Positions 11,784-64,000 of a stretch of DNA of 64,000 bases are shown here, one piece after another. The first letter of the stretch is position 1. Every line of letters starts with the position of its first letter. A program made the position numbers and the translations under genes. The DNA lies in the NCBI RefSeq assembly GCF_964204645.1, contig NC_134028.1:11765263-11829262 (forward strand), given 5' to 3'. The notes below the pieces were generated by a model. The model worked only from the letters and a program-made list of their open reading frames with translations. It was not told where the DNA came from and ran no database searches. Source of the stretch: Tubulanus polymorphus. Its lineage: Eukaryota; Animalia; Nemertea.

Positions 11784-13227
11784 AACATATTTTGTTTACC
11801 TCCGATAGTTCCCAGTCTCCAGGTCATCAAAGCTCATAGGGGTTCCACCGGCATGGACACATAGATTTCAAATGGCCTGACTTAATTCCATTGCCAATAA
11901 ATTGAACAGTTTGAAGTTCTGGGCCAAAGGAAATCACCCGTGGTTTCCGCAGGTATTACTCTAGTGCTATACATTATAACAAAATTTGAATTTGCAGAGG
12001 CGTTGGAAGTGCAGGGACTGCAGTGGTGAAAGCCATAATAACTTAATAAATTACTTAACCCTTTCACTGCCAGTATTTTGTAATCAATTAACCCTCTCCT
12101 GCCACTTATAATTAGTGGTTTTTGTAGGTATAACATACAATATATTCAATTAGCTCCATGGCTTTTACTACTGAATTTAACTCGTGTAAACTATATATGG
12201 TTAGAAAGTAAATATACTAAGCTATCTTATCCAACCAAAAAAAAGTAATGCCGTATAAACAAGTTCAACCAATGATGTCATCAAGATGGCTGCCAAACTC
12301 TGTTCCAATCGAAAAATGAAATTTCAAACTCATATATCATGTTACAGTAAGCAAATATATGATTATTTTCAATCTAATGCACTTATATGTAATGATTGCT
12401 ACACAATAAAGTTATTTCATGTTGATAACGATGGTTATTCAGTTTTAATTGATTTTTTTTGTGCCTGAATATGGTCACTCACTGATACCAAAATTCTCGG
12501 ATTTCGAACACATTCTCATTTTTAAGTCAGATTCTTTTCAGCGTGCCATATTTTGAAACAAGGATAAGGACACAAGGGAATGTTACCACAAAAATAATGA
12601 CCAGCTGGCTGATTTCCATCACTGTTATAATTATGATCATCCAAATTATTTTCAGTGTTGCCATGGTTTCTGTCAAAATCATCACCCTAAAAATCCAAAC
12701 TACTATCCTCAACACCCAACGATGAATTCGCATCTGACGCTTCATCACTCAAATGTCCAAATGTGTTATCATTCTGATCAACAATATCAACGAATTGATC
12801 CCACCTTAGTTCGCTTTTTTGTTCTAGCATTATCCATAAGACAATAAGCACACTTGTTACTACACATCAAGTCATTTTCTAAGCGTGAAATTAACGTAAA
12901 AGTGTAATATTTTTCCAAAAAAACTCTGCTACCTTGAGGTTTAGTTTGTGTCTGTACTACCGACATAGTTCTATCAATATCCGCCAGGTGCAGACACTTC
13001 AGGTATATAATAGTCACTAAATTGACAAGTGACTCGAGCATTTGCTCGGCCGAGCATAATTGAAGAAGACTCGGCCGAGTGAGTGGTTAAATTCGGCGGT
13101 CCACTCGGCCGAGCTAACAGTATAGTAATTCCTTTACTCCGCCGAGTAAACAAAGAAAACACAGTGCTTATGGCGAGACAGTATCGGTTATGATAACAGA
13201 CAGCCACAAAATAGGTCTACTGACGCA

Positions 13228-13622
13228 ATGTCTACAGGAACGTCAAAACTAAAGATCGAGGAGTTGCGATAACGGGGAGCAATGTTTAAAAAGAATCGTT
13301 GAAAACGCGGATATCGGATATTTGTGATGGAATTACAACTGACGAGCAACCAGGAATAGTTGAAAGTGAAAACGTGATAATTTCGAATCAGTTTCCAAAT
13401 ATAGCTGAGGTATACGGCAGAAGTTTTAATTCTCTGCCTAGTGATGACGCCAGAGTCCTGCTCACGAAATTAGTATATTTGAGCAAAGTTTTAAGTGGAA
13501 TGCGTTCTACCAACCCACACTGGGGAGATGAATCATGTCGTGTTCAGTGGTGGCCTGAAAACCTACCATGGAGGAGAGAACTGGCAGATCGGCCTACATT
13601 TTTCATAAATGTGAAAGCTTGA
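13228..13622 (+). pseudogene. Accessory ORF of the KDZ element with an NRF1/Ewg-like DNA-binding motif
   Basis: NPHWGDESCRVQWWPENLPW resembles NRF1 KPGWGKESCKPIWWPEDIPW; upstream ATG at 13228 is separated by a stop and a frameshift; possible donor AG-GTACGC at ~13625. Confidence 0.55.
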
Positions 13623-13857
13623 CAGGTACGCAAAAATAAATTTAATTCTAATTTCTAATATGAACTTGCTATTAAAATTGTTCGAAAGCAAAAATTAAAC
13701 AATTAAGAGAAAAATGTCCCTTAAGGTAGAAAAAATACCCTAGTCTATCATTTCATGTATTATAATCATTGGAAAATTTATTCACTCAGTGTATGTGTAC
13801 ATATATTATGTTTATATTTTAATAAAATTCAATTTATAGATTCAGATATCAAATTCA

Positions 13858-16800
13858 TTATACTTTCGTTATTTTATCTCGGTTTTCTATCGCGAGGAAC
13901 AAAGCAATGTGACGCATAAAGTTCTCAGGCTTCATATATGCTAACTGTGATTTCAGGCGAACCAAGCCTGCATTTGCTTGTTCGTTGACTTGGCTGTTGA
14001 TATTTGTGACATCCACATTCGCTTTGTACAAGTCAAGAGAGTATCCATCGCAGCATCTGTAATTATAGTAACATATTAAAAATGTATCAATACAGTATAA
14101 ACTCTTTACAATGATACTGCTTTAACCACAAAGGATTAATACTCCCAACCTAAAATGAAAAGACGTATTTAATTTATTCAGACTCCACTCTGGAATTGTG
14201 GGGGACCAAAAATGTGTGTTTATATGAGGATACAATAAATGACAGAAAAGTGACATCAACTTTATATATCTGTACGAATCAGGCGCAGTAACATAATAAC
14301 ATAATATTTACCCTGTGTGATTTTTCCAGTGTAAGCGGTCAACACAGAACATTGTATTTCTGAAGAATTCTGGTTCTCTACAAAATAATCAAAACAAGAA
14401 AGATGATTCACTCATTTTTCATAAGTAACGAGATGAGTAGTACTATATAGGTTAACTATTTATTTGACGCACGAGCTTTCGCTACTAATGAATCAGGTGA
14501 ATGAGTATAGTCAATAGAAAAACGACAGTTTTTATAGGTAGACTGACACTAATTACAGAGAACTGAGTGAGAAGAGTAATTACAAATAAATGATGAGTGA
14601 CATGATAATTAATAACTAAGTGAGTGAGTGGATAATTAATCAATTAAGGAACAACAAACTAAAACAAATCAAAGAGAAATAATCAAAATGAAACTATATC
14701 AAAGTTAAATAAACAGATAGTATCTAAGAGTAACAAATAACAAGAAATGGGAGTCCAAAATAAGTCCAGATACAATGAATAACAAACGAAATTACGTTCT
14801 GTAGTGGGACATGAATCCTAGATCGCGATTGAGGCCAAGATTAACAGTATCACCGCGTTGAATAAGTTTTTGTTCCATGATTTCGCGCGAATGCTTATTA
14901 GAAGTGTTCATTTTATGTAACGCGGTCACTTTTAGGTTACTGATAGTGTGGTTCGAAAGATAGATATGTTCGCCGATAGGTTTAACCATTTTCTTGTGTC
15001 TGATATCAAATTTGTGACCGTTCAAGCGTTGATGTAATGTTTGTCCAGTTTCTCCGATTATGACACTACTCGTCTTGTTACTTATTTTAAACCAGGTTAA
15101 CACAGCTATATATTCTCATCAATTTTTCATATCTATGAATAAGTTTCTTATGGACAATTTGTCAACTGAAGTGAAAACGCTTACCTATTCAAACAGTACT
15201 GACGAAGTTTACAAGCATTGTCGTACATGATAAGGTTAGGAGGTTTTGAAAACCTTGTCTTGAAGATGCTGAATGGGTGCTTCTGCGATTCGTGACTTTC
15301 CATAACCTGAATACGATAAATATTTCTTATCTTTAAAAATCTATTCCCATCCGACACTAGATTACTCAATTTCTAAGGTTTTTCTTACCTGAAATCCGTA
15401 ACTAATGCTATGAAGACAAAACACTGTAAATATTCCTGGAGTCAGGACTCTGTGACACTTCGAATATTTCTGACACATGTCTCGTTCACTCTCCCAACAA
15501 TTACTTCTAGCTGTGTGTATTGTATCCATTTTGTATGATGCATCTCTGGAATATTTATAAGCAACTGTATTAAAAATAGCCCATTTCATTTAATACTATA
15601 ACTGAAATGAAGAATACTTACTTATGTAGCTTTGGTGATACTGGAAAGAAACTCAGTGTTCTAAATATCTCTTCGCTTTCTGCAGCACAGTACAAGTTGG
15701 ATTTATTTTGTACCTATGATTTTAAAAAGTTGAATTGTAAGAATTTCACATAGTAGCAAAAAAATGTACTGTTAAGCAGTTTTACATTTTCATATCAGTC
15801 ACAATAAATATACAACTTACCTCATAGCACAATTTAATTCGAGCAACAGTGTCATATATGAATGTCCTGTGAACATCTGTCAATTCTTGGCTAACTTGAT
15901 CCCGACATCCAAGTATGAAACAAACTACGATTGTTGCTTCTTTCATCAGCTGAGCAACGTTTGTCTGATTACTTGATTGAAAAAAGTCAGCCTGCCTCAA
16001 GCAGGACTGTAGTAATTGTAAAGTCAATTCTACATTATTTGACTGAACAAGGGCACAAACAGGCCCATTACATGAAAGTGCTTTAAACAATTCTCTCTCA
16101 TTTTCCTTAGCAGTCAACGATTCATTTTCCAAAATTAACGTGGATAAGCTACGAAGATGTTACTCGTGTAGACAGTTATTTTGGTCCATTTTTTGTGCCT
16201 GAGGTAAATGAACTGGCTCCTTAGGTACCGTCTCAGCTGATCCAGCTACCTGACCACCCGCATACTGCCGAAGAAGCTTTCTAGCTTTAGTCAATGGGAA
16301 AAATACACAGTCTAGATGTTTAGGTCCAGAAATTGGTGCTGACTCTGGGAAATCTGATGATGTGGAAGACTCAGATTTAATAAAGTCTTTCCTGAAGCCA
16401 ATATCTACCCCCTCACAAATTATTACAGGCGGAGTGGAGAGAAATTTCTGACACACGAACTCGTCATTCCAGGTGAACGAGAGAAGCCTGATAAATACAT
16501 TCCAGCTTCCCTGCAATACATGTAGGGGAATCACATGTTCACTAAAAAGATTCACTGAAGTTCGAGACAGTGCCCTAAAAATAACAAAAATTATCTATTT
16601 GATAACAGCGTTTCTTCGTTTAAAATGTTTCAGGAAAATCTCGATAAAGATTTCACTGGTTTTTTACATTTCATTTTTAGGTACAATTCGATAGCATACC
16701 TTTGGAATGTTGACAATGGATTGCGCCCCTCAACCATCAGATGTAAACATCTAAACAATAGCCGATAATCTACAAAATCTGCATTGTTTAAATTAATCAG

Positions 16801-18186
16801 CAAACTTCGCTGCCATCAAAATGAAGCTTACAGTCACACGATCATGTAGTCGGTCGATAATAAGCTGAAATGATATTAAGCACTGTCAAATTGATTTGTT
16901 TGGAATACATGAAAGAATAAAAAATAAATGTGAACAAATAAATGCAGGGAGAATTACCTTTAATTGGCTTAATTATTCCATCATGCGTGGTTTCATTCAT
17001 TAAACAATTTTCAGTATGGACTTTCACGGTCTCTTTCGATAACCAGTTCATAGCAAATGGATCTCGTGTATCCCAAGGCTTACCATACGTACAACAACGA
17101 GTGTAGGATAATACGATAAAATATTTACAGATTCAGTTTCATTGTTATCTTCTAATTCATCCGGATTGACAGCACTTGGGAATAATATTGTAACTGCTTT
17201 GCAATGTATACAGTAAGCATCCGATTGCTTTCCATAAAATGACTTCCCAGGTTCACTTAGACTCATTGATAACGCCCGAAGATAAAGCTTGTTACACTCT
17301 CCAACAAAACAGGTACACATCAGTAACGAGCAGGACTCATCCATATGTGTGAATCTGGATTCTTTCCTAACTACACAATGTTGAGAACTTTTATAATCCG
17401 CCAATACAAAAGCATTATTCGAAATCATCCAGAATTTCTCACTTCTTCGCAAATCCTGCATATAATTGTACTCCAGGTTTATTTCGATACTGAGGAAAGA
17501 CGATGAACTAACATCTCTGAAAAGTAAAAAAAAAGCTTTTTACTACAGTAGTCCAAACATTTAAAAAAAGCTTATGGTTGTAGGCCTATACGAAATGTGG
17601 TATTGTTTCATGTCGCAGAATTTTTGTAGCCTGAATTAAGCTTAATTTTCTCTTTCATTGTTATTGGTACAAATTTCATTTATCATCTGTTGTATCATCA
17701 TCCAAAACCATGTAAGATTTTATGATGAATAAAAATTGATTGAATGTGAATTACGACCGAGTCTTCGGATGATCATTCTGACCGAGCACCGAGAGTTTTT
17801 TATTCACACAATACATGACCCAATATAAATAGAACTGAATCATGGGAGTTACTTCAGTACATGGGAGATAGTTCAGAGTGAGGGTGTCCCGAGCTTACAT
17901 CGTAGCGGATTTCGAAATCGATCAAACTTATCAAGTAAGTTAAGATTATTAGGATTAGGAAAACTTACGATGTATTGTAGTACTAGTAGGCCTGTTGTTA
18001 ATGTTATTAATTGTTGGTTACTTACTGCGACATGGTCTGACATGGCGCTCTTGTATTATTTGATTCTGAAGCACATGATGAAGTTTTCTGCTGTTTCAAG
18101 GGTGTTACAGTTGACAAGATCGTACTTTTTCGTTCTTCACGTTTCTTACAAGGAACTATATTAGCGCTGCGTGCTTGGCGAGGCAT
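13858..18186 (-). pseudogene. Intron-containing KDZ transposase with CxC4-like cysteine cluster (HMGXB3-related), disrupted upstream
   Basis: In-phase GT-AG exons 15389-~15545, 15185-15306, 14312-14377 and 13858-14056 give LTPGIFTVFCLH..ESHES..IMYDNACKLRQYCLNR-EPEFF..VDRLHWKNHTGC..NSQVNEQANAGL; YYRPT..CDC..FDG at ~16700-16864 with a stop/frameshift; putative first exon from ATG 18186 (MPRQARS). Confidence 0.85.
14450..15065 (-). mobile_element. 5'-truncated Penelope-like retroelement (GIY-YIG C-terminus plus pLTR) in a transposase intron
   Basis: ORF 14792-15103: IGETGQTLHQRLNGHKFDI..EH..REIMEQKLI..GLNRD; degenerate hammerhead CACCTGAT..GAAAGCTCGTG on the minus strand at ~14470-14500. Confidence 0.85.
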
Positions 18187-19235
18187 TCTCAATCAATGAT
18201 CTTGAAGTGAGCGCGACAGTGGCGGCGCAAACGGAATACGGACCGGACCAAATTCAATTTTATTTTATTTTGTGAACCAATCGGGCGGCACCCACAGACA
18301 TTTTCGAACTAATTGTTTGCTCGACTGACAGGGTAAGAATGAACAAACTACTGATATCTTGGCCAAGTGTGACTGCAGAATTTAATAAGTCACTCGGCCA
18401 AGTAGATTGGCGAATTCTATCGTTTACTCGGCCAAGTAAAGAACTTAACTTTTACTAAACTCGGCCGAGTGGATTGTCGAATTCGAACAATCACTCGGCC
18501 GAGTAAACAACTTTCTGATATAATGCTTGTCAATTGGGACCGTATTTTATAGCTCGACACTTCCCATATTTATTCAACTCTACTCAGTTCAGACTATTTC
18601 CGGAGAGGCAGTTTGGGGTGAAATTACGCTCCCGACTATAACTGGAGTGGCAGTTATATGGTTAATGATCATTGAAGTTCTAAAATTGCTTCCAACGTGC
18701 CTGATTTTTAAGTCAATTATGTAGCACTTATTAAAACCTAATTAACATAATTATTATTTTTCAGAAACTGGCTCAAATTAAATTCAGAGACGTTACCAAT
18801 TCCTATAAATAAGCCTGTTATTCTATTCTGCAGTATGATCTGATAATAATCCGAAAATTATGGATTTTTATTCATTAATCATTTTAGCTGTCAGGTCATA
18901 AATAAAAATAACTTTCACCGAAGGTCATTTTTCAGAAAAATCTAGAAATTTGGAATTTCACTGCCATTCACTGTCCCTCTCATGCAAAATTCACTGCCAA
19001 CTGCAGCAACTTTTTAAGAAATGTGCTAATTTTCGAGCCAGTGACCAAATGCCCACACTAAGGCCTTTTCAATTAGTTGGAGTATGAATTTTACCAGCAA
19101 AATGAAGGGTAGAAGAGGAAAATATACAATCTTTCAAAGCATATATACTTTTTCAGATCACAAATCTATTTAAATGGAAGGGAACACAGCGCCCTTCTAT
19201 GAGTATTTTCCATGTAAATCTTGGAAGGACTGTAG

Positions 19236-24735: not shown

Positions 24736-25074
24736 CTAAAATTGTACACAGAACTCAGATATCAATGTCTACAATAAAACCATCAGTTCAAAGACACCAT
24801 GCCCATTTTGGGAATGGCAAAATACCAACCCAATAAGATTGGTTGCCCCAATCTTCACACTGAGTTTCATGAAAATTCTTTAGAAATTGTAGGCTGTATC
24901 ATGTGAACAAGAAATTCAAGATGACTGCTTGGCAGCTATATACCTGGCTGGTATTTTGATTCCCAATGACCTACAACTGTGATACGGGCACACATTTCAC
25001 CTGCCAAAAGTCGCTCACTAAATTTTATGACAATCCATCAAGAATGACAGGCAGTTGATAATTTGATAATTTCG

Positions 25075-27471
25075 GATTTTTGCTTAAAAAGTCTATCGCT
25101 GTTAAGCAGAAAGCTAATTGCATATCTGAGACTTCCTTTGATGCATGTGTGATTAAATTGTCATTTGGTTCACGTAATGTGAATTTAGTCTACAGACCAC
25201 CACCATCTAGGAAAAACAAGTTTACAGTGTCCATGTTCATTGAGGAATTCACACCAACTCTAGTTGATCTAGTATCACACGCAGGCGAACTCATCATAGT
25301 CGGTGATGTAAACTTTCACCTTGAAAAACATGATTCAGCAGACACGATCAAATTCATTGAGCTATTGGAATCTTTTGGGCTTAAGCAATTCGTAACATTT
25401 CCGACCCACAAATCCGGACATACCCTGGATGCTGTTATAACATTTGGTAGTACTATCAAGAGGATATGCAGAGGGTATATGGTCGCTGACCATCACCTCA
25501 TTGTTTGTATGATTCCAATGTGAAAACCGTCATCAACGAAGAGAGAAATATCAGTCCGAAAACTGAAGACTGTTGATCTTGACAGGGTAAAGCATTCCAA
25601 GAGGCAGTACTACAATACCAGGATTAAAGATGCAAGTTCAGATGGAAAAGCTATGCAGAAAGTGTTTGATGAACTTCTTCTGAAAGATGTTAGTAGAAAG
25701 CTGCCAGATAGTGATGATTGGGAAGAACTTGCAAATAGATTTGCAACTTTCTTTGCTGACAAAAATGAGAGGAATAGCCTATCTTTCCCAGACTCGTGTT
25801 TGGGTCCTGAAACGATGCATTTCGGAGATTGTGAGCTAGCGGAATTTGAGCCAGTCTTGGAGAAAGAGCTTATATCAATAATAGGGAAATCGCCATGTAA
25901 GTCATGTGAGCTTGATGCTTTGCCTACTTGGATGCTGAAAGCCATCCTACCTGCTGTCATTCCTCTCTATTTGGACATTATTAACAGATCGTTGTTGGAA
26001 GGATACGTTCCCGTGTCTATGAAGACTGCGTTAATAACCCCCCTCATTAAAAAAGAGAGCTTAGATACTTCGTCCAGTCAGTAACCTCCCGTTTATCTCC
26101 AAGGTACTGGAGCGTGTTGTAGCTGCTCGTATAACTGCTTATATGGATGCTAACAATTTACATGATATTTACCAGTCTGCGTACAAAACCTGTCACAGCA
26201 CCGAGACAGCTCTTGTCAAGGTTCAAAGTGACATTCGTAACATGGTTGACGCTGATGGTGCTGCCATACTTGTCCTTTTAGACCTGAGTGCTGCCTTCGA
26301 TACTGTGGACCATCTCATCCTTGTAAATCGACTTCAGGTAGTGCTCGGTATTCGTGGTTCAGCACTTCAGTGGTTAATATTGTATCTTGAGAATCGAACG
26401 CATCGTGTCGTTATTAACGGACATTACTCTGATTTCTGCAAAGTTGAGTATGGTGTGCCCCAAGGCTCCGTGCTGGGGCCACTATTGTTCCTCATTTATA
26501 TATTGTCCTTAGTGCAGTTATTTGAGGATAGCAAAGTTTCACGTCATGGTTTTGCGGACGATGGGCAAGTGTATATGGCAATAAATGCAAATCATCGGGC
26601 ATTAGTAGACAAGTTAATGTTATCGAGCTTACATGTTCTCAAGTCAACAAGTGGCTTATCGACAATAAGTTGATGTGCAATGTGGATAAGTTCGAGGCAA
26701 TGTTGTTTAAAACAATGCATATACTGCGTTCAATCAACATACGTAGTATTCGTGTTGACGACTTTGAGATTCCGTTATCGAATAAACCTATCCGAAATCA
26801 TGGAGTTATTTTTTACCCTCAGCTCAATATGGAGGCACATGTTAGTAGTGTTGTCTGTGCTACGTCCTATTATCTTAGGTAGCATCCGGGACTACTTGTC
26901 TGATGCGGCTGCGAAACTGTTGATGCAGTCCCTAGTTTTGTCGAGGATTGACTACTGTAACGCATGCTTGGCAGGACCATCTTTTTCTTCTCTTCACAGA
27001 CTGCAATTAATACAGAACCGTGCCGCTCGTATTGTCACCAAAACAAAGAAATATGAGCATATAACACCTGTGCTTAAGTCCCTTCACTGGTTGCCTGTGA
27101 AACAGCGCATAGAGTTCAAAGTTATTCTCCTTGTTTTTAAGTGCCTCCACTTGTTGGCTCCAGTCTACTTGAGAGATCTACTCGTTCAGTACAATCCAGT
27201 TCGTGCACTAAGATCATCATCTCAAAATTTACTCCAGCCCATTACAACCTAAGTACTTTTGGTGGACGTTCCTTTACTGTAGTTGCTGCTTCCCTTTGGA
27301 ATAACATTGATAACAACCTGCGTAATATTCACGATGTCAACCAGTTTAAACGTTCACTAAAACATCTACTCTTTCAACGTGCCTATACTTAGTGACTATG
27401 AACCATTGCAGTGCGCCGGTGAACTTATTTTTTAAGAAACAGGTGCCTTATAAATGTTTATTATTATTATT
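25075..27471 (+). mobile_element. 5'-truncated L2-clade LINE (APE plus RT, frameshifted, internal deletions)
   Basis: VYRPP, GDVNFH, PTHKSGHTLD, YQSAYK..STETAL, LLDLSAAFDTVDH, GVPQGSVLGP, FADD, SRIDYCN, LHWLPV; (TTA)n tail at ~27458-27471. Confidence 0.92.
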
Positions 27472-35700: not shown

Positions 35701-36080
35701 TGAACGGAGAATCGGAGAGATGTGATCACGTGACTTAGTTCAAAGTAGTGCGCATGCGCGAAGGGGAAAAGCTGTCTGCTAACAGCTCCGATCAATTTCG
35801 GATTTTTGGACCGTAAAACTAGCTAACGGACTGTGTATTCACTACATATTATCAGATTCGGCCCAAGGAACCATCAGAAATTGCTGAAGCGCTGCGACAA
35901 CGTAAATTGGTTGCATTTGCAGTAGTTTTAAGTCGGTTAGAGACGTTGATTTTGACACTTGGCAACACGTGTGTTTACACCGGAAGTAAACAAACCAGCG
36001 CTTACAGAAATCCATACGCAGAGGAAATAGGACAACTTCATTTTATTATTAACTGACAAGTTAGCCGTTTGAAACCAACT

Positions 36081-37672
36081 ATGATGGCTTCGGGATTAAA
36101 CGAAGGGAATAAGTATTCAATACGTAATAATGAAGCTAACGAAACGAACAGTATTGACGAAATAAACATTTTGGATGTTTCAAGTAGCAACCAGGTGGTG
36201 CTTGCGTCAATTCGCGAAAACCAGGAAAACTCTAAAAATTCACGTAGGACATCGCTGGCACTGGAGCTATCAAATCATCAGGACGTGGCAGGTACATCGA
36301 ATGTTTACCATTGTTCACCTACTAACACCACTACTAACAACACATCCCCCAGTACCGTTGTTACTAATACACTACTAAATCCGACTCACGACGACTGGCC
36401 CGATGATAACAACAGAAATGAAGAGTGGCAGGATGACTGGAGATCCGAGGGGGACGATAGCTCTGATCCCGAACACTTGACCACGCCAAAATTGAAGAAT
36501 CAACAGAGAGTCAAATATCACCTCTCCGGTTCCTCACGTACTAGACAGTTCATCAGACCGCAGCAAGGGATATCATCTACATCAGCTAGTTTCAGTAGAC
36601 CAACATATCTGGCAGCTGAATCGGATACACCAATAGGGTTCTCCCCGATACCTAAGATAAGAATATCCAAAAACACTTCAAACATGCCAGAAAATAGTAT
36701 GGATATTGAAATCGGGCCCCATAAAGGAGACAAACCCATCCAGCAAGCTAGTAAAAAAAGGAAGATGAATATATGTCTATCTTGTGGGGACAGTGGACGC
36801 AATATCAGTTGTTCGATATGTCAAGGCAACTGGTGCGAAACCTGCGTCAGAACGATGTACGAAGATATTGACCTGAAAAATTTGATGTTCTTCATCTGCA
36901 AGCCATGCAAGGAGGATCTTCCTAACCTAAGCAGAACAAGAAATGAGTTTAGTCCTGAAATTACCGGTACTCATAGTTTCTCACCGGAGGACTTAGCTTG
37001 CATGAAAGATATTTTCAAAGCTGGAATCAAAGAGGTTGCCGATCAAAAAGTAGACAAGGACGACTTCAAGCAACTTCTAACTGAATTCAGTAAGCTCAAC
37101 ACAAAGGTTGAAACGATGAGCACAAACCTTGAAAAGTCTGAGACCAAGAGGATACAGGAAATTGAAAAGTAACACAAAATATAGAAAGCGATATTCGTGA
37201 TATAACCGATAGTATCCTGGAGTCAAGACAGAGACGTACCCACCTGATCCTGTACAACGTCCCCGAATGCAATGACCCGGACTGGAAAGTTAGATTAAAA
37301 ACAGATAGTGATGCTGTCGAACGATTTCTCACTGTTACTCTGGGAGCATCAGTCGAAAAACCAAAGCACCTGATGAGATTGGGATCCCAACGTACGGACG
37401 GGTCAGACAGACCTCTTAGAGTAATATTGAATACGGAATGGGAAAAAGATTCATGCTTAGATCGCTATCTCAACAAACTTCGATACAATAGGGATACTTT
37501 AGGAAATATCAGAATGAGCGAAAATAAATCAAAACTTGAAATGAAAAAGTACAAGAAACTACGAGACGAACTCGAAAGAAGACTGCAAAATGGGGAGAAA
37601 AACTTGACAATCAGAAATTACCGAATAGTTGAACAACGAGCCAACAACAGGAGAGATAACAGCTTTCGATAA
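36081..37672 (+). pseudogene. CR1 ORF1 (PHD finger, coiled coil, RRM-like C-terminus), one frameshift at ~37170
   Basis: CLSC..CSICQGNWCETC..FICKPC; continues RRTHLILYNVPE..MRLG..RPLRVIL..LRDELERRLQNGE. Confidence 0.85.
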
Positions 37673-37839
37673 AAGGGATGTAGACCAACAGCCAATCAAA
37701 GTTTGCATCCCAGAAAACACCAGAAAAATTTACAAATATCAGGACGATCAAAAAACGCATGAAACGAAAACTGAAAAAATTCAAGATAATAAATTCCAAG
37801 TAATCGAACGGAACTCCAATCAAAACGCCAGTCGACAAA

Positions 37840-40678
37840 TTCAACTCGAGAAATTAACTTGTTTAATGACTAATGCCGATCAATTGCCTAATAAAATAGA
37901 CGAACTGGAGCTTATGGTAAATCAGTACTCGCCTCACATAATTGGGATCAGTGAAATGAAGGCTAAAAACCCGAGAAGTACTACACGAAACAAGCCACCA
38001 AATATCAGGGGCTATGACTGTTTCAGCAATCTCGAGTCAGAGGCAGATAGCAGGGGAATATGCCTGTACATAAAAAGTGTGCTTTCCCCAGTACCCTTTC
38101 AGCTGAAGACAAAGTTCTCCGAAAATGTTTGGGCTTCGGTTAACCTAGAAAATGACAGAAAACTACATGTAGGATGTATATATAGAAGCCCAAACTCAAA
38201 CGACGAAAATAACAATAAACTTCTGAAAATGCTAGATGAAATTTCACAACAAAATGCAGAAATGGTATTTTTCGGAGACTTCAACTATGGTGAAATTGAA
38301 TGGGGAACACCTGAATGTAGCAAACCACCAGGACACCGTGCCTCAAAATTCCTGAATGCTACTCAGGATGCTTTCCTAACTCAACATCAGCTCGAACCAT
38401 CTCGTTTCCGCGAAAACAACCAACCTAGCAATTTGGATCTTATCTTCACGAACAGAGAAGGAAAGATATCCTCGATAGAACACACTTCTGGTCTTGGAAA
38501 GAGTGACCACAACATTATAACATTTGATTATAATTCATCAGTCTCCTACACAAGAAATATCCAGGATAAGGTGCAATACTCCAAAGGTGATTATGATAAA
38601 CTACGACGATTAACTCAGCGAAACTGGGCTGATGAAATGAAAAATATGAGTGTCGAGGAAAGTTGGGAGCACTTCAAATCAATAATAAAAGAGGCAGGGG
38701 AAAAGTCTATTCCTACTTCAAAATATAGTGGCGAAAGCAAACCTAGGCCACTCTGGATGACCCCGGATACTTTGAACTCAGTGAAAGAAAAGAAGAAGTC
38801 ATGGAGGAAATATCTAAAAAACGAAATGTGACCAAGATTATGCTCAATATGTCACCGTCAGAAATAAAACCAGAAGAGATCTAAGGAAAGCTAAGAGGAA
38901 CTTGGAAAAGAACATAGCCGAAACAGCCAAAACTAATCCAATGGCTTTTTGGCAATATGCAAATAGTAAACTAACAAATAAGCAAGATATACCGCCTCTA
39001 TACATATCCTTAGACCAAAACACCCTTACTGATTCCGATGACATAAAAGCGGAAGTTTTTGCCAACTATTTCGCATCCGTATTCGTTAACGAAGACTTGC
39101 AGAATATTCCTGTTTTACATGATGTGCCAGAGCGCCCAAAACAAGAAAATATAGAAATCAAAGAAGACAAAGTTTTAAAATTATTAGAGAAAATCAAGGT
39201 CAACAAATCTCCAGGTCCAGATCGACTCCACCCGGGAGTACTCTTTGAAGCTAGAGAAAACCTTTATGTACCTCTTACAGTCATTTTCAACAAGTCGTTA
39301 CTAAGTGGTGAAATACCAAAAGACTGGAAACTCGGGTGTGTTACCCCGTTGTGCAAAAAGGGAGATAAACATAAAGCTGAAAATTACAGACCCGTAAGTT
39401 TAACTTCCCTAGCATCCAAGCTTATGGAGACGCTAATTAGAGACGCTGTGACGAAACATCTGGAAGAAAATAAATTGTTATCGAACGACCAACATGGATT
39501 CAGATCGGGAAGGTCTACCACCACAAATCTGTTAGATTCACTTGACGATTGGACTGAAGCACTGGATAATGGATATGCAATCGATTGTATATACCTTGAT
39601 TTTCAAAAAGCATTTGATACAGTGGCCCACCATAGATTAAACTAAGATAAAGCACATTGGTATAACAGGCATCATCGGTCGATGGATTGAAAATTTTCTT
39701 AAAGACAGAAAGCAATGCGTTCGGGTAAATAACAGATGTTCATCGTGGAGAGAGATCAAAAGTGGTGTACCGCAAGGTAGTGTATTGGGACCTACACTAT
39801 TCACTATATACATAAACGACCTTCCAGGGGTAACAAGTGTCCCTACAAAGCTCTTTGCTGACGACACGAGGTTGTATAACATCATCAGATCAAGAAACGA
39901 TTGTGAAAAACTGCAGGAAAGTGTTCTAAACGTAACAAATTGGTCGAACACATGGGACCTAAGTTTCCACCCAGAAAAGGCAAACAGGCTCAGAATTGGA
40001 CCCGAAACGAATCCTTTCAACTACAGCTTGAGTGGTGTACCTATAAAAAGAAGTACCGCCGAAAAAGACCTCGGAGTGATTATAGATGATAAAATTAACT
40101 TTAAAACCCATATAGCCGATTCTGCTAACAAAGCTAACAGAGTACTCTACACGATAAAAAGAACGATGCACTTCCAAGACACTCGTGCTTTTCTGCTACT
40201 GTATAAATCACTAGTGCGTCCTATACTAGAATACGGAGTGTGTGTTTGGGCACCAAACTCTATCCCCGAGATTGACAAACTCGAAAGTATCCAGAGGAGA
40301 GCTACGAAGATGATTAGAAATATTAGACATCTTCCATATGAACAACGATTACAAGTACTAAATCTCCCCAGCCTATCTTATAGAAGACTGCGTGGAGATA
40401 TGATCGAAACCTATAAGTATCTCTATAAAATAAATCGCGCAAGCTCCATCGTCCATCTAGACCCTAGACCAAGAGAAACACGAGGGCACTCTCTAAAACT
40501 GGAGAAACGTAGAAGCAAAAAATCTATACGAGCGAACTTCTTCAGCAATCGAATAATGAATATCTGGAATTCTCTACCTGATGATGTTGTATCATGCGAA
40601 TCACTAGACCTATTCAAGAAAAAACTCGACAAGCAATGGACAAATTACGAACTGAAATTTAATTATAAAGCAAAATGA
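37840..40678 (+). pseudogene. CR1 ORF2 endonuclease-reverse transcriptase, two frameshifts
   Basis: CIYRSP, GDFN, LDLIFT, SDH, KSPGPD, YRPVSLTS, QHGFR, YLDFQKAFDTV, GVPQGSVLGP, FADD, EKDLGV, TRGHSLKL across ORFs in three frames. Confidence 0.93.
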
Positions 40679-50902: not shown

Positions 50903-52286
50903 CAGAACCAAGTTTCATTACAATGTTTCTAAAGGACCTTGGATCCAGTAAGATCAACTGAACAGGGTTTATTTTGAAATAATTGATTCGTCCTGGGATT
51001 TGCAATAACATATTAAGACGAAATCTTGGTGCACAATACCACTGTAGTAAGCAACTATTATGATATTCATTAGCAATAGGTTTCCCCATACTCGATGGAA
51101 TGATACACGGCAGACCAATTAATACAATGTTTGTTCTATAAACATAGAACTTGGATGTTGAAGGGCTCTCCCAGTGATGACAAACAAGCATCGATTAGCA
51201 GCATGGGGATAAATTCATTAAAATTTTGCTCACTTTCTTCCAGTATCTGAATGGCTAAAAGTTGACTGGGGAAACTGTCCATATTATTTCCAACCCCTAT
51301 TTCCCTCCTAATGACAAAATATCAGGTATGTAAATCCAGTGGCTACAATTTGCCACCAAGAGGTAACAGAATTAGAAAGTTACCCTCAGCATTATTCTAG
51401 GATCAATAAATACATGTGACCCTCAAAACTAAAGAACTAGTACAGACTCATAACAAATATGAGCCCAAGAGCTGTGTTTTTCATTAAGAAAATTCCTCGC
51501 TCACGGTGCGTTCATATGCGCTTGTCCGGTGGGTCAGTGTTATTTTGAAATGCACTGATGAGAAATCTCAGAGATGAGAACGCCGACCTTTAAAATCCAC
51601 GGTTTTTTTCTTGAGTTACCCACGCGAACCAGCTGACGGCTTGCGAGCGCCGAAGGCGCAGTGCAATTTGGGGGGTTTGGGGGGCCCCCAAGAAAATTTT
51701 AGAAATCAAAAGCGTTTTCCGAGCACTTAGAGTGATCTTGAACTCATGAACGACTTTTATATTTTGGAAGGTAATGGGTATTTCCAATGTGGCATATTAC
51801 CTTTGATGACAATCAACATCTAATGCATTACGGGTCGAGCCCTGAATTATTGCAGTTAAATTGGGCTGGATGAATGAACACTAAAAATCATCACAGTGTA
51901 TAATATCTGAAGGCGTTCGCCACATATGCGACAGTAGTAGGCATATACTATACTACTGTTGCCGCGCGCTGAACAGGCGCTGAAACGCTTTCACTGTTCA
52001 CACACGACACTTGTCGAGTAAACCTGATAGAAACCACTGAGCCCTTCATGAGCCTCATGTCTAGAGTGTATAGAGTTCCGTAGTCAGGAACCATTTATCC
52101 GTGTCAGATCAACAGTGCTTGGTAGCGTGGCGCTTATAAAAGGCCGCGCATTCACGGACCAGGCTCTCTTGATCGTGGACCCGGACCTGGACCTCAGTTA
52201 TTCTCAGTTAACCTGGGTAAAGTATAATTTCCAAGACTTTCCTTCAGCAATTTAGGCTTATTCCATGTTAGGTATCATATACTATA

Positions 52287-53331
52287 CAGAGATGCTAGGG
52301 CCAAAGTACCAAAATTCCGGAATTTAGAACGGGGGTCTGGGGGCCTGATCAACTGCGGTGCCATCGAAAATGGTAATGAGTGTTCAGCCAGGAATGAAAC
52401 AGTCATTGCCTGTGCATTCGAAACTCTGTCAATCAGGCTGACTGGCCGTTTAGCTGTCTCGGTAACTGTTACTACATTTTCAATATTCGGAGCAGCTCCA
52501 TACGGGACGGATACTTTTCCTTGTGTCGATGTACTAGCGGCAGTATCACGATCGGCATCTTTCATCTTAAAATACGACGGCAGGCATTCGTTGTGCTTCA
52601 CATCCCTCGCTGCCTTCTTATGCCGCGCGCTATCCGGGTGACGAAGAATATCTTTTTTCCCACCACTACCGTATTTGACCTGGTCTTTACAAACAAAGCA
52701 GTACGCCACGCCAGCTAAGTCTAACTTACGAATGTGGTTCAATAAGTAGTCCCCGTTAATGTCCTTACACTCTAGCCAGTGCCAGTTTAATTTATTTTTT
52801 ATACCGCTGTCAATTGCCTTTATATCGGCCGACTCCCGACAGACAATCTTTCCGTGCGTGCTCATTTTGCAGACCGTCCCGCTTGACAGCTGCAGGCAAA
52901 AATAAAGTTACAAAGCTGCGTGCCTCAGGACACAGCACGCACGTGGTAATAATTAAGATGATATTTATTAAATATCATCTTAATTATTACCACGTGCATC
53001 TTCACATTGTTGGCCGTCAGCGGGACGATGTACAACGGCGCGTAAAGATAATTGACTTTTAATTGGAAATGGCGTCACAACAGTGGCGCTCCGCCTACGC
53101 ACGCACAGATACCACAACAAGCACACATATATACATTGTAGCAGAACGTCCTCGGAAACAGAGACCAAGATAAAATAACACAGAAGCGACAACGAGTACA
53201 AGCAAACGAACGCTTTTACGGTTCGTGCCATTACTGGTCGCCGTGAGGAACTTCCACCCAATTTCCGGAATTGACATCGGCGATCCTAAATTTCCGGAAT
53301 TCCGGATATTTCCGGAAAACTAGCATCTCTG
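52287..53331 (-). mobile_element. Internally deleted hAT-type transposon, TIR CAGAGATGCTAG, 6-bp TSD ACTATA
   Basis: ORF 52865-52345 with zinc finger AYCFVC..RH..RH and FLAEHSLPFS; ACTATA at 52281-52286 and 53332-53337. Confidence 0.88.
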
Positions 53332-56451: not shown

Positions 56452-59400
56452 CAGGGTTCATAGCCTCCAGGCCCAACTTAATTTAAGTACTTTCAAGGAC
56501 CTATTTCAACAAAATTCAAGTACTATTTTCTGAAAAATACCATATAAACACTAGTATTTAAGGTGAATTTATTGCAATGAAAATTCCTTAATTGCAGAAA
56601 TTTAAAAGAAGTACAAACGCAAATCATCATAAAGAAACATCCACGTGTAGCAGAGCACTTGATAACTTTGGAATCTTTCAGCTTTATTTTAAGAAAGATT
56701 TACTACATGTATCAGAAATTAATAACTTTAAAACAAGAAATCTGTGGGCCTTTCAACGGAACTACAGGTAGACCTCGCCATCAAAAAGCCATACTATCGA
56801 AAGCAAAAATAACAAAATTATACAAAATCAAATTACAGCTCATCGACCTATTTACAATCGATTAATTTGCTCCTTTTGAGTTTCGATGGCTGAAATTACA
56901 TCGGCCAACTCATGTGATTTGTCTTTAGCCGAATTTCTCATGGTCACAGATTTTAAAATGAGCTCATGAGTTTCACTTTGTTTGCGAGATTTTAAACTTT
57001 CATCAGCCAATGAATCAGCAGAGGCGTTCAGACTATTAATATCAGTTTCCAGGCATTGTTTTTCGCAGTAAGCTCATTCAATTTCTGTTCCTTTCTTGCG
57101 CTTTAAATCTTTATCTGATAACTGAGTGGGAGCTTGCTCCTTGAGAAAGTCTTTGTAACAACTATGCGCTGATCCAGCATGTGTTACCAGCTCAGGGGGA
57201 ATCGGAACTTTTGTGACATCACCATCAAAACTAAGTACGTGATCACAAATGAGCCTTTGAGCTCTGTAGGTCATTTCAGCCATATTATCCCTTTCCACCT
57301 GCCGGTTTATGGAAAACCCTCTTACAACAGAGGCTTGACCATGCGATAAAAGCAGTAGGTTTTTCACAACATTCCACAATTTTGGGAATTGGGAAGTGTT
57401 TATTCCCATGTGCATTAAAAGAAACTGATCCAAATAGTCTTTTAACCTATCAAATGAACTAAATGATGACTTATTCTTATTAACATAGACAAAGTACTCA
57501 TCAAAGCTGCTTAGAATGTCATCACAGTCCTGTTCTTTCACAGGCTTGTTTGTTACTAATATTGTAAGGATACGTTTAAACTCTTTTTTACACACATCCT
57601 GATTGTTAGCTAAACGCACTGGATCAAGGCACTGAATATTTCTTACAATACCATATTTTATGGGTGCTTGCAGTAGTAATTTTTTCAGAAGAGCAATAAC
57701 AAAGTTACAAAACTCACTGCGGAATTCTAGAATTTGACGTTCAGATATTTTTTTTGTGGCAGTCAATTCACGCAGCTTTGTTTCAGCACTAAAGCCCACC
57801 TCAATTTTGGAATGACGGACATGACTCTCAGTATTGGACAGGTCAATCTCAAGAAGCTTGAGTATAGAGTCTGCATCATCAACAACACTGGATTTGATAA
57901 TACGTTTCATAAGTCTCCGAACAAGATCGGACAAATCTCCTGCCATAAAAGGCAACATAGGGCTGTCTGATTGATACATTGTCATGAATGGAGTTGTTCG
58001 TTTTGCTACGGAGAGAAATGCTTGAAGGCGCGGAATGGTCATGGAGTGTGATGCAGCATTTTTTACAACTTGATATGAATTACATGTTGGTTGTGAAGCT
58101 CTCTTCAACTTAGTCTCAACCCATTCTACATACTGTTGAACAGCAGGCCAAATATGTATGGCATGTTCGGCGGCGGGGGCGTTTTCTAACCATCTGTAAA
58201 AAGTATTGACAAAAAATATGGCATCAAACATTAATCATTGAATAAGGTCACATGAATAACTGTATTTAATGGATTCCAGAAACAGCACTAATTTCACCAA
58301 CACTGGTGTTAAAAGAATGCAGCTTATTTTAATACTGGTATAAATGTGGGTGTGGAAGGCACTGACACTAAAATAAACACTAGGGCACTATTATTATAAG
58401 CTGCCTTTCAATAATGCAGCATTAGATTTTCTTGCCGTATCCGACAGGTTAGTTCATGAATGAGTTAAACTTCTGCTCTGGATTGAAGATGAGGGAAGAC
58501 ATACCTGTGACGACAGAATTTCTTTGGAAATACCGTTGAATGCTTCATGCAATCCTCCCTTCTTGCAGGAGCATCTTTAAATAACATATAAAGGCTGGTC
58601 AAGAGAGATTCAATATTCCATTTCGATGTTTCTGACCCAGACTTGAATGCATTGTTGAGAATATGCAATCCACATGATCCTATGTTTAACAACCCAGAAT
58701 CAACAATATACTCATCTTTCAAATAGTTACTGAGTTTATCATAAAAACACCAATTTACGCTCGGACCGTCCATGGACAATTGATACAGTTCAGAATAATT
58801 CAAATCAAACTCTGCCGTGAACGCGTTTAACATATCAGCTGCCGTAGCATGTCCAATGAAAGCTGATCCATAGTCATGCGAAATAACTTTGCCTTCATCC
58901 CATGAACGAAACATAACATCTAACTGCTTTGACTGTGTTCTTTTGTTGAGCGATTCATCAAATAACAAGACGTAGGGACCTTCTCCTATTTTGTTCTTAA
59001 TCAGGTCCTTAAGATACGGATAAATTCCGAAATTTACCAGATAAGACACCTTTCTCTCGCTAAAGATAAATTTGTCCGCAATTTCTGAATCTGGAAACAT
59101 GTACTTGAAAACGCTTGGGGAACGTTCACATGACTTAAAGGAATAATGTCTATAGACAACATTCAGCGCCCAAACTATTTCAGCCCGCAGTACATTTTCT
59201 TTGGTCAGAAAATTATCTAAACTGTGGCTGGTATGCCCACTGACTGCAGCTGGTTCTGAGGCTGTCGAAGAAGCTCTGAAATGTATAAAATTGAAAAGCT
59301 TTTCTTGCTCATTTCAATCACCAAAGCTAAAAGAAGCAGCCTCACTTCATTCAAAGTTAATCTCAGGAGCGCGATTTAACGACAAAAACCTTGGTAGAAA

Positions 59401-61661: not shown

Positions 61662-62707
61662 TTAATCCCCAGGACCTGGTTTAAAAATGTCTAACTGGGC
61701 CCGATGTTTTTTGGGTTTTTGTACGCTTATTCGCTGTGCAGTAACAATTGGACCCAACGTGGACAGTGAGCCTAACTGTCCAGAAACGTCCTTCAAATAA
61801 AATGACGAGAAGGTAGGAGACGTCCAGAAGGCTGACCGACAAACCTGTTCCAAGGAAGCCCCCGTGAATAATGACCAGGATATGGCTAATGCCCTCACCT
61901 GATGAGAATGTATCCCGAGCGGAGCCTGGGCCCCCTGAGAATGCAGAGTTTCTTTAATTAAAGATACAATCCATCTAGCGATTGTGTCCCTTGAGATATC
62001 TCTCTTATCCCCTTGTCGGAGAGGAATAAAGAGCCTCTCCCTATCTTGTCTGTGGGGAAGTGTCCTCTCTAGGTACTCCTTTAAAGCTCTTACTGGACAG
62101 AGCGACGTATCAGGAAGATCGTGAGATACCCTATGCGTCAAAGCCTCGATCTTCCAAGATCTGGCTGCTACGGAAGCCTTTTGATTCTTGGCAATGAAAC
62201 TAAGACCAGGCCTTAAAATGACAAACCTATCTTGTGGACCAAAGGAAATATGACCCGGACGCATCGATAAAGCATCGAACGCCTCGCGGCCATCGCTAAG
62301 AACAGTAAGAACACCGTTTTCTTAGATAAGTCTGACAGGGTAGTATTGCGGATAGGCTCGAAGGGAGTGATCATAAGTGCTCTAAGAACCACTGTTAAGT
62401 CCCATGGCGGGATATCTGAAACCTGTTTGGGTCTCTTAACCCCAAAACCTGATATCAATTGAGCTATTTTCACATCCTCCGTCACTACAGGGACGCCCGC
62501 TGAACGAAAAGTATGCCCTATTGCTGATCTGTAGCCTTTAATGGTTATAACCTGTCTATTCTTCTCTTCGAACAGGAAATAGAAAAAATCTATTAACTCT
62601 GACACAGAGGGGTGGAGAGAATCCACCGCTCTCCTATTACACCAATCGGAGTAACATTCCCACTTGGAATCGTACAATGCTCCGGTAGAGGGACGTTTGG
62701 ATTCCAC
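61662..62707 (-). pseudogene. DIRS tyrosine recombinase, frameshifted at ~62270
   Basis: RPSTGALYDSKW, TIKGYRSAI, PPWDL, LAMAARRS; LCPVRAL, HQVRALAISW, FSSFY. Confidence 0.88.
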
Positions 62708-62780
62708 GATAAATCTGGCTGCCCCCGAAGAAATTCCTTGGTTTGAAAGCTGTCGCTTGACAATGGCCAGGCGTGTAGAT

Positions 62781-63965
62781 TCAATTGGAATTGATTTGGG
62801 TGTAACTTGACCGTCCCTGGGACAGTAACCCGGGGTAATTGGGCAGAGTGCGAGGGAAGTCCACCAGTAGATGCAGGAGTCTGAAGAACCATGTCTGAGT
62901 CGGCCAACAGGGAGCCACTAAGACCACTTGACAGTTGACTGCCCCCTCTATCTTCTCCAACACTCGATTGAGTAGGGGAGTGGGGGGAAAGGCATAAGCC
63001 AGCAGGTTGTCCCAACTCAGAGATAGAGCGTCCACCCCCCACGCCAAGTCGTCTTGAAATGGGGACACAAACACCGGACACCTCGTGTTGAAGCGAGTGG
63101 CAAACAGGTCCACGTTCGGACTTCCCATCAGGGCCCGGACTTGATTGGCTACCCTGACTGCCAATGTCCACTCGGTGGCTACTGGCTTGTCTTGGCGAGA
63201 CAGAGCGTCGGCCACCACATTCAGGCTGCCCGCCAGGTGAGAAACCGAAAGAATCATCCCTTGAGCCTGGACCCAGGTCAGAATCTGAGCTGCTAAGTTG
63301 GATAATGTTGGGGACCTGGTCCCCCCCTGGTTGAGCAAATAAGCCTTTACTGTGGAGTTGTCCGTTGACAGCCACACATGATGACCCCCTAACCTCCTTT
63401 TGAAGTGTTTGAAGGCCTTTTGAACCGCTAACAGTTCCAGGTGATTTATGTGGAGATGAGCCTCTGCTCGAGACCAGTTCCCGGCTTTCTGAAAACCTTC
63501 TACATGTGCTCCCCAGCCCTGATGGCTGGCATCCGTGAATAGATGAATCGGGGCCTTCAAAGGTGCTAGGGAGGTGCCTCTTGTCAAGTTCTGCGCGAGA
63601 GTCCACCACTCGAGGTCGGGGATTAGGTTCACCGGTGGTACCGGCAATAAGGTATCCCACTCTTCCCCTACCGATCTCCAAGCTTGCTTCCAGAATCTTT
63701 GAAGAGAACGGCTGTGTAAACGACCGAGCGTAACTACGGGTGCAACGGAACTCATCTGGCCCAAAACCTGGGACCAGGACCGAGCCGATCTGGGCGCCCC
63801 CGTCAGGAGACCGAGAACTGCCTCCCTCAGCTTCTGAACTCTGGCCTGTGCTGGTCTGACTAAGGCCTGCGTCAGGTCGAAGTGCATACCTAGGTACGTG
63901 AACCTTTGAGAGGGGGTCAACTGGGACTTCTCTAAATTCACTATGAAACCTAATTGACGGATCAA
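62781..63965 (-). CDS. DIRS RT C-terminus, RNase H and adenine-methyltransferase-like domain
   Basis: LGFIVNLEKS..YLG; FTDASHQGWGA, HINHLELLAV, TDN, NVVADALSR; DLFA, YAFPP, VAPCWPTQTWF. Confidence 0.9.
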   Translation of the reverse strand: MIRQLGFIVNLEKSQLTPSQRFTYLGMHFDLTQALVRPAQARVQKLREAVLGLLTGAPRSARSWSQVLGQMSSVAPVVTLGRLHSRSLQRFWKQAWRSVGEEWDTLLPVPPVNLIPDLEWWTLAQNLTRGTSLAPLKAPIHLFTDASHQGWGAHVEGFQKAGNWSRAEAHLHINHLELLAVQKAFKHFKRRLGGHHVWLSTDNSTVKAYLLNQGGTRSPTLSNLAAQILTWVQAQGMILSVSHLAGSLNVVADALSRQDKPVATEWTLAVRVANQVRALMGSPNVDLFATRFNTRCPVFVSPFQDDLAWGVDALSLSWDNLLAYAFPPTPLLNRVLEKIEGAVNCQVVLVAPCWPTQTWFFRLLHLLVDFPRTLPNYPGLLSQGRSSYTQINSN

Positions 63966-64000
63966 TGCCAGTGTCTTGTCTAAGGCTTCCTTGCACTCTG

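Follow-up and report, generated by a model that had tools for sequence, protein, structure and literature searches.

Background

The Kyakuja-Dileera-Zisupton (KDZ) elements are DNA transposons whose transposases combine a KDZ domain (PF18758) with a CxC4 domain (PF18717), and extra open reading frames (ORFs) beside the transposase are already known from them. KDZx1 of Cryptococcus deneoformans has two ORFs, an 8-bp target-site duplication (TSD) and CxC4 (PMC11343200), while the fungal TET+ KDZ families bear TET/JBP cargo (PMC12730594); unknown extra ORFs in fungi are mentioned as well (PMC12730594, PMC11343200). Here we analyse a 64,000-nucleotide stretch of the nemertean Tubulanus polymorphus (contig NC_134028.1, positions 11,765,263 to 11,829,262 of the forward strand), called the window below, in which an element at positions 13001-18555 carries a KDZ transposase gene and the remains of a gene related to NRF1. 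We regard the NRF1-like gene as probably a regular companion of a KDZ lineage. The fuller proposal reads the element as the decayed remains of a KDZ DNA transposon with two genes, the NRF1-type partner likely binding palindromes at the element's ends; for this whole mechanism we hold the chances to be about even.

We know of no described mode of end recognition for KDZ elements; among cut-and-paste elements that use a separate DNA-binding partner as their second component, Harbinger is to our knowledge the best known. In the CACTA element En/Spm a separate element protein, TnpA, which is made by alternative splicing with TnpD, binds short arrayed subterminal repeats. Harbinger/PIF elements have two separate genes, and the Myb-like partner binds both the ends and the transposase and is far more divergent than the latter (PMC9179366). 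NRF1, Erect wing and P3A2 (PF10491) consist of a MADS-like dimerisation domain, a linker and a WG..WWP DNA-binding domain and occupy 12-bp dyad sites; the base-reading residues of NRF1 are R206, N242 and R244 (PMC10810270). Full-text literature searches found no pairing of KDZ or Zisupton with NRF1, or of PF10491 with a transposon, and a Repbase entry or a supplement could already list the ORF.

Results and discussion

Boundaries and transposase of the window element

The sequence GACACTTC is repeated on the forward strand at 12993-13000 and 18556-18563 and brackets a 5.55-kb element (13001-18555). Comparison with two related elements indicates that the left end may instead start at 13000 (CAGGTAT), in which case the duplication is 7 bp (12993-12999) rather than 8 bp. 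The left terminus (13001-13029) begins (C)AGGTAT and the right terminus (18526-18555) reads GAGCTAT inward; they form an imperfect terminal inverted repeat (TIR) of 29 bp (72%), with a subterminal inverted repeat of 83 bp (76%). Duplications and inverted repeats bear out the original prediction, made from the letters alone, of a TSD-bounded element, and its view that the copy is degraded is confirmed by damage in both genes. Other copies were examined through the contigs of four runs (X1-X4), which come from one study and at most two samples. Contigs of X1 and X3 link 13000 to 18592, joining both flanks without the element, which therefore inserted into a host repeat that is unoccupied in its other copies. 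Further contig joints (13054 to 18472, 15615 to 17114, 17037 to 18499) indicate that the family includes internally deleted members.

On the minus strand nine exons run from 18186 to 13858, and all eight introns are GT-AG. By tblastn they match the CxC4/KDZ proteins P0004-P0008 with E values down to 4e-25, and they are 45-56% identical to these over 172 core columns, so that the spliced minus-strand KDZ transposase of the original prediction stands. Single exons and pieces from the window gave no KDZ match in Pfam; four of the five relatives match PF18758 (E 2e-3 to 8e-6, all under the curated cut-off), and P0004 matches CxC4 above the cut-off (E 2.2e-8) in a stretch to which window positions 17096-16699 align with an E value of 1e-18. 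CxC4 and KDZ are the only Pfam domains in these full-length relatives.

An NRF1-like gene remnant

The motif HWGDESCRVQWWPENLPW lies at 13518-13571 on the plus strand, in a stop-to-stop frame at 13290-13622. This frame matches PF10491 at E 8.8e-5 and 22.7 bits (the Pfam cut-off being 23.5), and its top PDB matches are the NRF1 chains 8K3D and 8K4L (E 7e-6 and 2e-5, over 27-28 residues only); these matches uphold the claim of an NRF1/Ewg-like ORF convergent with the transposase. A HMMER scan of 1.84 billion proteins returned three matches, two of them real: P0001, 36% identical to the window ORF, and P0002, 30% identical and from Tubulanus polymorphus. The third, P0003, is a repeat artefact. 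Both real relatives exceed the PF10491 cut-off (P0001 E 1.3e-14, 54.9 bits, profile positions 34-207 of 213; P0002 39.1 bits), and neither showed a further Pfam domain or an NRF1 activation domain. The profile similarity to NRF1 is thus real, and in the relatives it spans both the dimerisation and the DNA-binding domain.

Structure comparison agrees, within the limits of poor AlphaFold models (predicted local distance difference test, pLDDT, 38 and 42). With the P0001 model Foldseek ranked NRF1 chain 8K4L first and second (E 1e-4 and 5e-4, pLDDT 38, template modelling score 0.22), at about 20% identity over the match; VIA-align gave no match above Z 3.2. Word-based homolog searches with this ORF yielded no longer sequence from 200 candidates and just P0001 and P0002 from 6,435. 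A metagenome scan gave a single match (L001), a chance one, and scans of viral contigs none for either gene.

Compared with P0001, the window gene continues upstream of a stop at 13287, and downstream its homology picks up again from 13583 in a different frame. The ORF first noticed is the central part of a longer gene that two deletions have interrupted, a point that had escaped the original prediction. The main frame of the remnant (13230-13571, plus strand) holds the end of the dimerisation domain, the linker and the first part of the DNA-binding domain; it is interrupted by a copy-specific stop at 13287-13289, and the 5' part is deleted at about 13229. The HWG...WWP...W block (13518-13571) corresponds to NRF1 G220-W240. 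The last helix (13583-13625, plus strand), put out of frame by a deletion at 13573-13583, matches P0001 residues 172-188 by tblastn and is followed by a candidate splice donor GT at 13626. The window copy has neither the gene start nor the DNA-reading loop.

A cluster of 101 mostly molluscan proteins of some 210 amino acids, unnamed in the ESM Atlas, scored 0.86-0.89 to the NRF1-like proteins and may be a wider family; NRF1 clusters are also among the rows, and all of these are leads only. The C-terminal 40 residues of P0002, which have no Pfam match, resemble what we take to be a scrap of Harbinger transposase, and suggest that this Tubulanus gene model sits in transposon debris.

The gene in other copies of the family

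The contigs of the four runs contain several divergent versions of the NRF1-like gene. Position 13288 is T in three X1 contigs (172 of 208 depth) and in two X3 contigs (106 of 106), which opens the stop to the codon TTA. Two deletions in the window copy show up as loose ends at 13228 and 13231 and as joints together with loose ends at 13572-13585. The 30-letter loose ends, when translated by eye, are open and in frame, and the homology continues through them: before 13231 stands S-K-E-E-A-V-A-V-V-I, a hydrophobic strand; after 13575 W-R-N-P-R-C-D-I-R-P-V-E, which contains the loop W-R-N-P-R-C-D; and before 13584 P-Y-T-D-V-V-K-R-F-C, the last helix. In a 273-nt X1 contig, 145 and 56 letters match on the two sides with 72 between them, restoring the 25-codon W-to-C spacing of P0001. 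The residues N-x-R of this loop, deleted from the window copy, are present in another window-family copy, P0001 and P0002 and align with NRF1 N242/R244; the counterpart of R206 was not placed in the window family.

These contigs bear on the idea that another repeat family supplied the NRF1-like stretch, as a one-off or nested insertion in the window copy alone. The original prediction had named absence of the ORF from other copies as a sign of such an event; the gene is present in them, in the same organism. The summed X1 depth at the listed variant sites differs little between the two genes (mostly about 120-200 versus 120-150), which is a rough sign only, depth being no measure of copy number; an insertion nested in the transposase gene reaches 5-100 times more. 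Neither a duplication nor termini were seen around the NRF1-like stretch. The nested insertion itself, together with the want of a bridging contig in any other copy, speaks for an insertion; with the same pairing in a second family (below), we think such an origin very improbable. X4 has no cover at 13308-13534, nor has X2, and these holes carry no proof. At 13752-13755 other copies show loose ends of 17, 90 and 121 letters, a hint of a third deletion that lies between the two genes and may have removed a last NRF1-like exon after the donor at 13626.

The same pairing in a second KDZ family

When prokaryote assemblies were scanned with the transposase, three loci came up, on contigs that look eukaryotic or viral, and searches in 401 and 400 prokaryote genomes (one unscored) gave only assemblies already known. 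The locus L016 belongs to G003, a 16-Mb assembly filed as a bacterial metagenome-assembled genome (MAG). Its megabase contigs contain spliceosomal introns and eukaryotic transposons (L004, L016-L021), and it is contaminated with host DNA. G003 has a single PF10491 match at E ≤ 1 (E 0.84), and this lies about 500 bp from the start of its best KDZ transposase, a coincidence with a rough chance of about 1 in 1,000.

L016 is a 5.4-kb element with TIRs of about 620 bp and an 8-bp duplication, GATAATGC. Its ends, CAGGTAT and GAGCTAT, are those of the window element if the latter starts at 13000. The transposase core is 54% identical to that of the window (172 columns), and a tree places the two in one clade with P0004-P0006 (99/99); at the DNA level the elements share one 93-nt patch (69%). 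Inside the TIRs lies an NRF1-like gene of two exons with a 119-nt GT-AG intron and 275 open codons, intact in an element whose transposase is broken, and both G003 copies of this gene sit in the element. NRF1 is the top PDB match of the encoded protein (101 residues, E 0.021), in an alignment that spans both domains. On the window-family profile the spliced core scores 19.2 bits; the best of 2,000 shuffles reached 8.7. At NRF1 positions 206/242/244 the protein has K/H/K. With the gene in other copies of the window family and the same pairing in L016, the pairing is not a one-off insertion. Linkage of KDZ with an NRF1-like gene, for which the original prediction had recommended a search of other invertebrate genomes, is seen here in G003, and the convergent arrangement it described is true of the window element; that arrangement is not conserved, since the L016 genes stand head-to-head across a shared spacer of about 300 bp while those of the window are tail-to-tail.

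The L016 protein is predicted to form a homodimer of the MADS/NRF1 type. For exon 1 the interface score (ipSAE) was 0.66, the best of three controls reaching 0.10; the runs shared at least 60% of contacts and pLDDT was at least 56. The predicted interface combines helix 8-29 and strand 31-37 in the arrangement described for NRF1 and MADS proteins. Of the solved test cases, 21 of 30 homodimers and none of 23 single chains attained the mark used, as did 17 of 29 and 0 of 30 among eukaryotic proteins; where no older solved relative existed, only one of seven did, and the pass may therefore be a memory of NRF1/MADS structures. In Foldseek the ten best rows for the L016 model were all MEF2 MADS domains, weak (E 0.36-0.88).

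The differences between the two families could also mean that host NRF1-related genes were captured independently, twice or more, as functionless cargo. The cargo proteins are only 23% identical, gene orientation and intron position differ, the order of the transposases in the tree is open, and a further KDZ element, L002, has no such gene. Yet the L016 gene has stayed intact beside a broken transposase, and the cargo has kept its layout of two domains as well as in-frame spacing, yet stands much further from NRF1 than a newly captured gene would. That elements with identical termini should twice have taken up this rare gene would be unlikely without selection, and we consider passive repeated capture improbable, though better placed than a one-off insertion.

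Subterminal palindromes and a possible role in end recognition

The core CTCGGCCGAG, with at most one mismatch, occurs eight times in the window (0.37 expected), and all eight matches lie within 170 bp of the element's ends, mostly 33-34 bp apart. The complete repeat unit is a 12-bp palindrome, ACTCGGCCGAGT (ACTC-GGCC-GAGT). On the left (13043-13147) four cores start at 13045, 13070, 13104 and 13137, the two later spacings being 34 and 33 bp; on the right (18358-18504) five palindromes start at 18358, 18393, 18427, 18460 and 18494, with a period of 33-35 bp. The arrays at both ends were absent from the original prediction. In the 16 kb examined around L016, 34 of 35 TCCA-N4-TGGA palindromes are held by that element's ends. 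Site and protein differ together, in that residues 242/244 (NRF1 numbering) are N-x-R in the window family and H-x-K in L016, a correspondence drawn from two elements only.

Non-autonomous relatives of L016 (L033 at 1501-2019, L019, L030 and L031) retain TCCA-N4-TGGA arrays. L033 ends in GAGGTA/CAGGTA and is flanked by the 8-bp TSD GCTGGGTA.

The Harbinger-like end-recognition role put forward in the original prediction would fit this anatomy. Intact window-family copies presumably carry both genes on one molecule. The partner would dimerise through its MADS-like domain, and its two DNA-binding domains would read the palindromes (ACTC-GGCC-GAGT here, TCCA-N4-TGGA in L016); it would coat both ends and hold or recruit the CxC4-KDZ transposase there for cutting. 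By analogy, and as a comparison of workings only, it may serve transposition as the Myb-like protein serves Harbinger. In both systems two separate genes are involved and the DNA-binding partner evolves fast: between the window element and L016 the partner is 23% and the transposase 54% identical. The Harbinger partner is of the Myb/SANT type, however, transposase and fold are unrelated, and the TSD there is 3 bp, against 7-8 bp and an NRF1-type partner with a predicted role here. En/Spm resembles the window element in its subterminal repeat arrays, although the folds of TnpA and of the partner are unrelated. With NRF1, Erect wing and P3A2 the window family shares the domain layout, the kind of candidate site and, in intact copies, N242/R244. 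It departs from them in its low identity (about 20%), in the activation domain, which was not found, in being transposon-encoded and in its candidate site, which is not the NRF1 dimer site GCGCATGCGC.

If an NRF1-type partner does act at the ends, it would be a second independent solution beside Harbinger, and one with a candidate site. It is also evident that the NRF1 fold, commonly regarded as a single conserved host gene, exists in a divergent, mobile form as well. Whether hosts passed the domain to transposons or received it from them thereby becomes directly testable, and the fold gains naturally occurring variants of specificity. We can imagine, while leaning somewhat against it, that a widespread animal CxC4-KDZ clade is two-component, with a fast-evolving NRF1-fold dimer as end-recognition subunit that co-evolves with the 12-bp palindrome of each family; the elements would then be a reservoir of NRF1-fold proteins with new specificities. 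It seems highly unlikely that NRF1/Erect wing was itself domesticated from such elements.

The main rival to end recognition is that the NRF1-like protein is a regular passenger that regulates the element's transcription or chromatin, whether by activating the promoter of the transposase or by protecting it against silencing, and that the cysteine clusters of the transposase recognise the ends. NRF1 is after all a promoter-binding factor (PMC10810270), and fungal KDZ elements carry TET/JBP anti-silencing cargo (PMC12730594, PMC11343200). The head-to-head spacer is common to both L016 genes, and both promoters of the window element adjoin palindrome arrays. The L016 arrays, on the other hand, occupy the ends of the element, which puts them downstream of either gene and well away from the promoter that the two have in common; the non-autonomous relatives have kept them; and P0001 and P0002 showed no NRF1 activation domain. 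We judge this regulatory explanation unlikely, though less so than capture or insertion.

Several observations weigh against the two-component proposal. The CxC domains of KDZ proteins have themselves been proposed to recognise DNA (Iyer 2014, as cited in PMC12062965). L017 is a 99.7% segmental duplicate of L016, so the two count as one insertion, and only one of the two KDZ elements traced end to end outside the window has an NRF1-like gene: the other, L002/L003, contains neither that gene nor a palindrome array; it is one insertion, of another clade, with a 7-bp duplication and a 5'-truncated transposase. The L016 protein is distant from that of the window (23% identity), its exon 1 is under the Pfam cut-off (PF10491 E 0.023, 14.9 bits), the window-family profile missed it in a genome search, and hhalign gave a probability of 1%. 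The tree does not make the two transposases sisters, and this, with the differing orientation and intron position, makes two separate captures possible. Within the window family, no contig of another copy bridges both coding regions, loose ends interrupting at 13228/13231 and 13752/13755; at least two other versions are broken too (a stop at 13471, a 1-nt deletion at 13348); and X1 is perhaps the window's own sample. The selection signal is weak: among the private changes of the best copy 5 of 10 are synonymous (P 0.075), in a count that uses 15 of its 18 differences and tells versions apart by depth only.

Relation to described KDZ groups

The window element shares with known KDZ elements the CxC4 and KDZ transposase, the 7-8 bp TSD and an extra ORF beside the transposase. 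It differs in its animal-type host, in a spliced transposase nearest to amphioxus proteins, in the palindrome arrays and in a companion of NRF1 type rather than TET/JBP or an unknown ORF. Fish-type Zisupton has SWIM, SAP, SUMO-protease and CxC7 domains; in Pfam the full-length relatives of the window transposase show CxC4 and KDZ only. Kyakuja elements have 5'-CA..TG-3' termini and no TIRs, as against (C)AGG..CTC and imperfect TIRs here. The element is not a member of the TET+ fungal group, as no TET/JBP dioxygenase match was found in the 15 element frames scanned against Pfam. TSDs are 8 or 7 bp in the window element, 8 bp in L016 and L033 and 7 bp in L002; the literature gives 8 bp for Zisupton and Dileera and 7 bp for Kyakuja.

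L002 (9900-12845; the same in L003; G001:C2 and G002:C2) is an AT-rich 2.9-kb KDZ element with the 7-bp TSD GTAGAAA. An NPNWGK scrap in it was rejected as NRF1-like, having no WWP block and scoring 2.4 bits. Its host contig, filed in two bacterial MAGs, is GC-rich, gene-dense and like that of a large DNA virus (deoxynucleoside kinase, protein kinase, BTB, phosphoesterase); KDZ elements might be transferred horizontally on such a contig. In G003, none of five short KDZ fragments (L004, L018-L021) has an NRF1-like neighbour.

Transposase exons and other features of the window

From the 5' end of the minus-strand gene, exon 1 (18026-18186) is predicted from a start codon and splice sites only, with no homology support. 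Exon 2 (16958-17516) has lost about 100 codons near 17090 relative to P0004 and has a frameshift, and exon 3 (16700-16864), part of CxC4, has a premature stop and a frameshift. Exon 4 (15821-16574) carries CEG..GFRKD and a premature stop at 16160-16162. It is followed by exon 5 (15622-15713), exon 6 (15389-15545; LTPGIFTVFC.H), exon 7 (15185-15306; ES..HPF..F..RF and YDNAC), exon 8 (14312-14377; DRLHW..H) and exon 9 (13858-14056), with the motif NSQVNEQAN and the stop codon. In sum, the 3' half has one premature stop, and the 5' half has a stop, a frameshift and a gap where about 100 codons are deleted. A conotoxin row in Pfam on the last exon (E 0.057) is a chance match. One X4 contig is without exactly the intron 15714-15820; it is a spliced transcript or an intronless relative, X4 not being recorded as RNA.

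The insertion nested in intron 7 (14424-15121, minus strand) is a high-copy sequence of 698 bp flanked by a 10-bp duplication, ATTTTTCATA, at 14414-14423 and 15122-15131, and was not noticed in the original prediction. It has a 21-bp inverted repeat (14421-14441 and 15065-15085), and its frame 14792-15115, which has no Pfam match, resembles what is presumably a scrap of a Penelope GIY-YIG endonuclease. The rest of the 64-kb window is repeat debris. Long frames there, judged by eye, comprise long interspersed element (LINE)-like reverse transcriptases, a DIRS-like element and two sets of DNA-transposon-like ORFs (25062-27249, 36057-40675, 61665-64000, 57077-59313 and 52278-52907).

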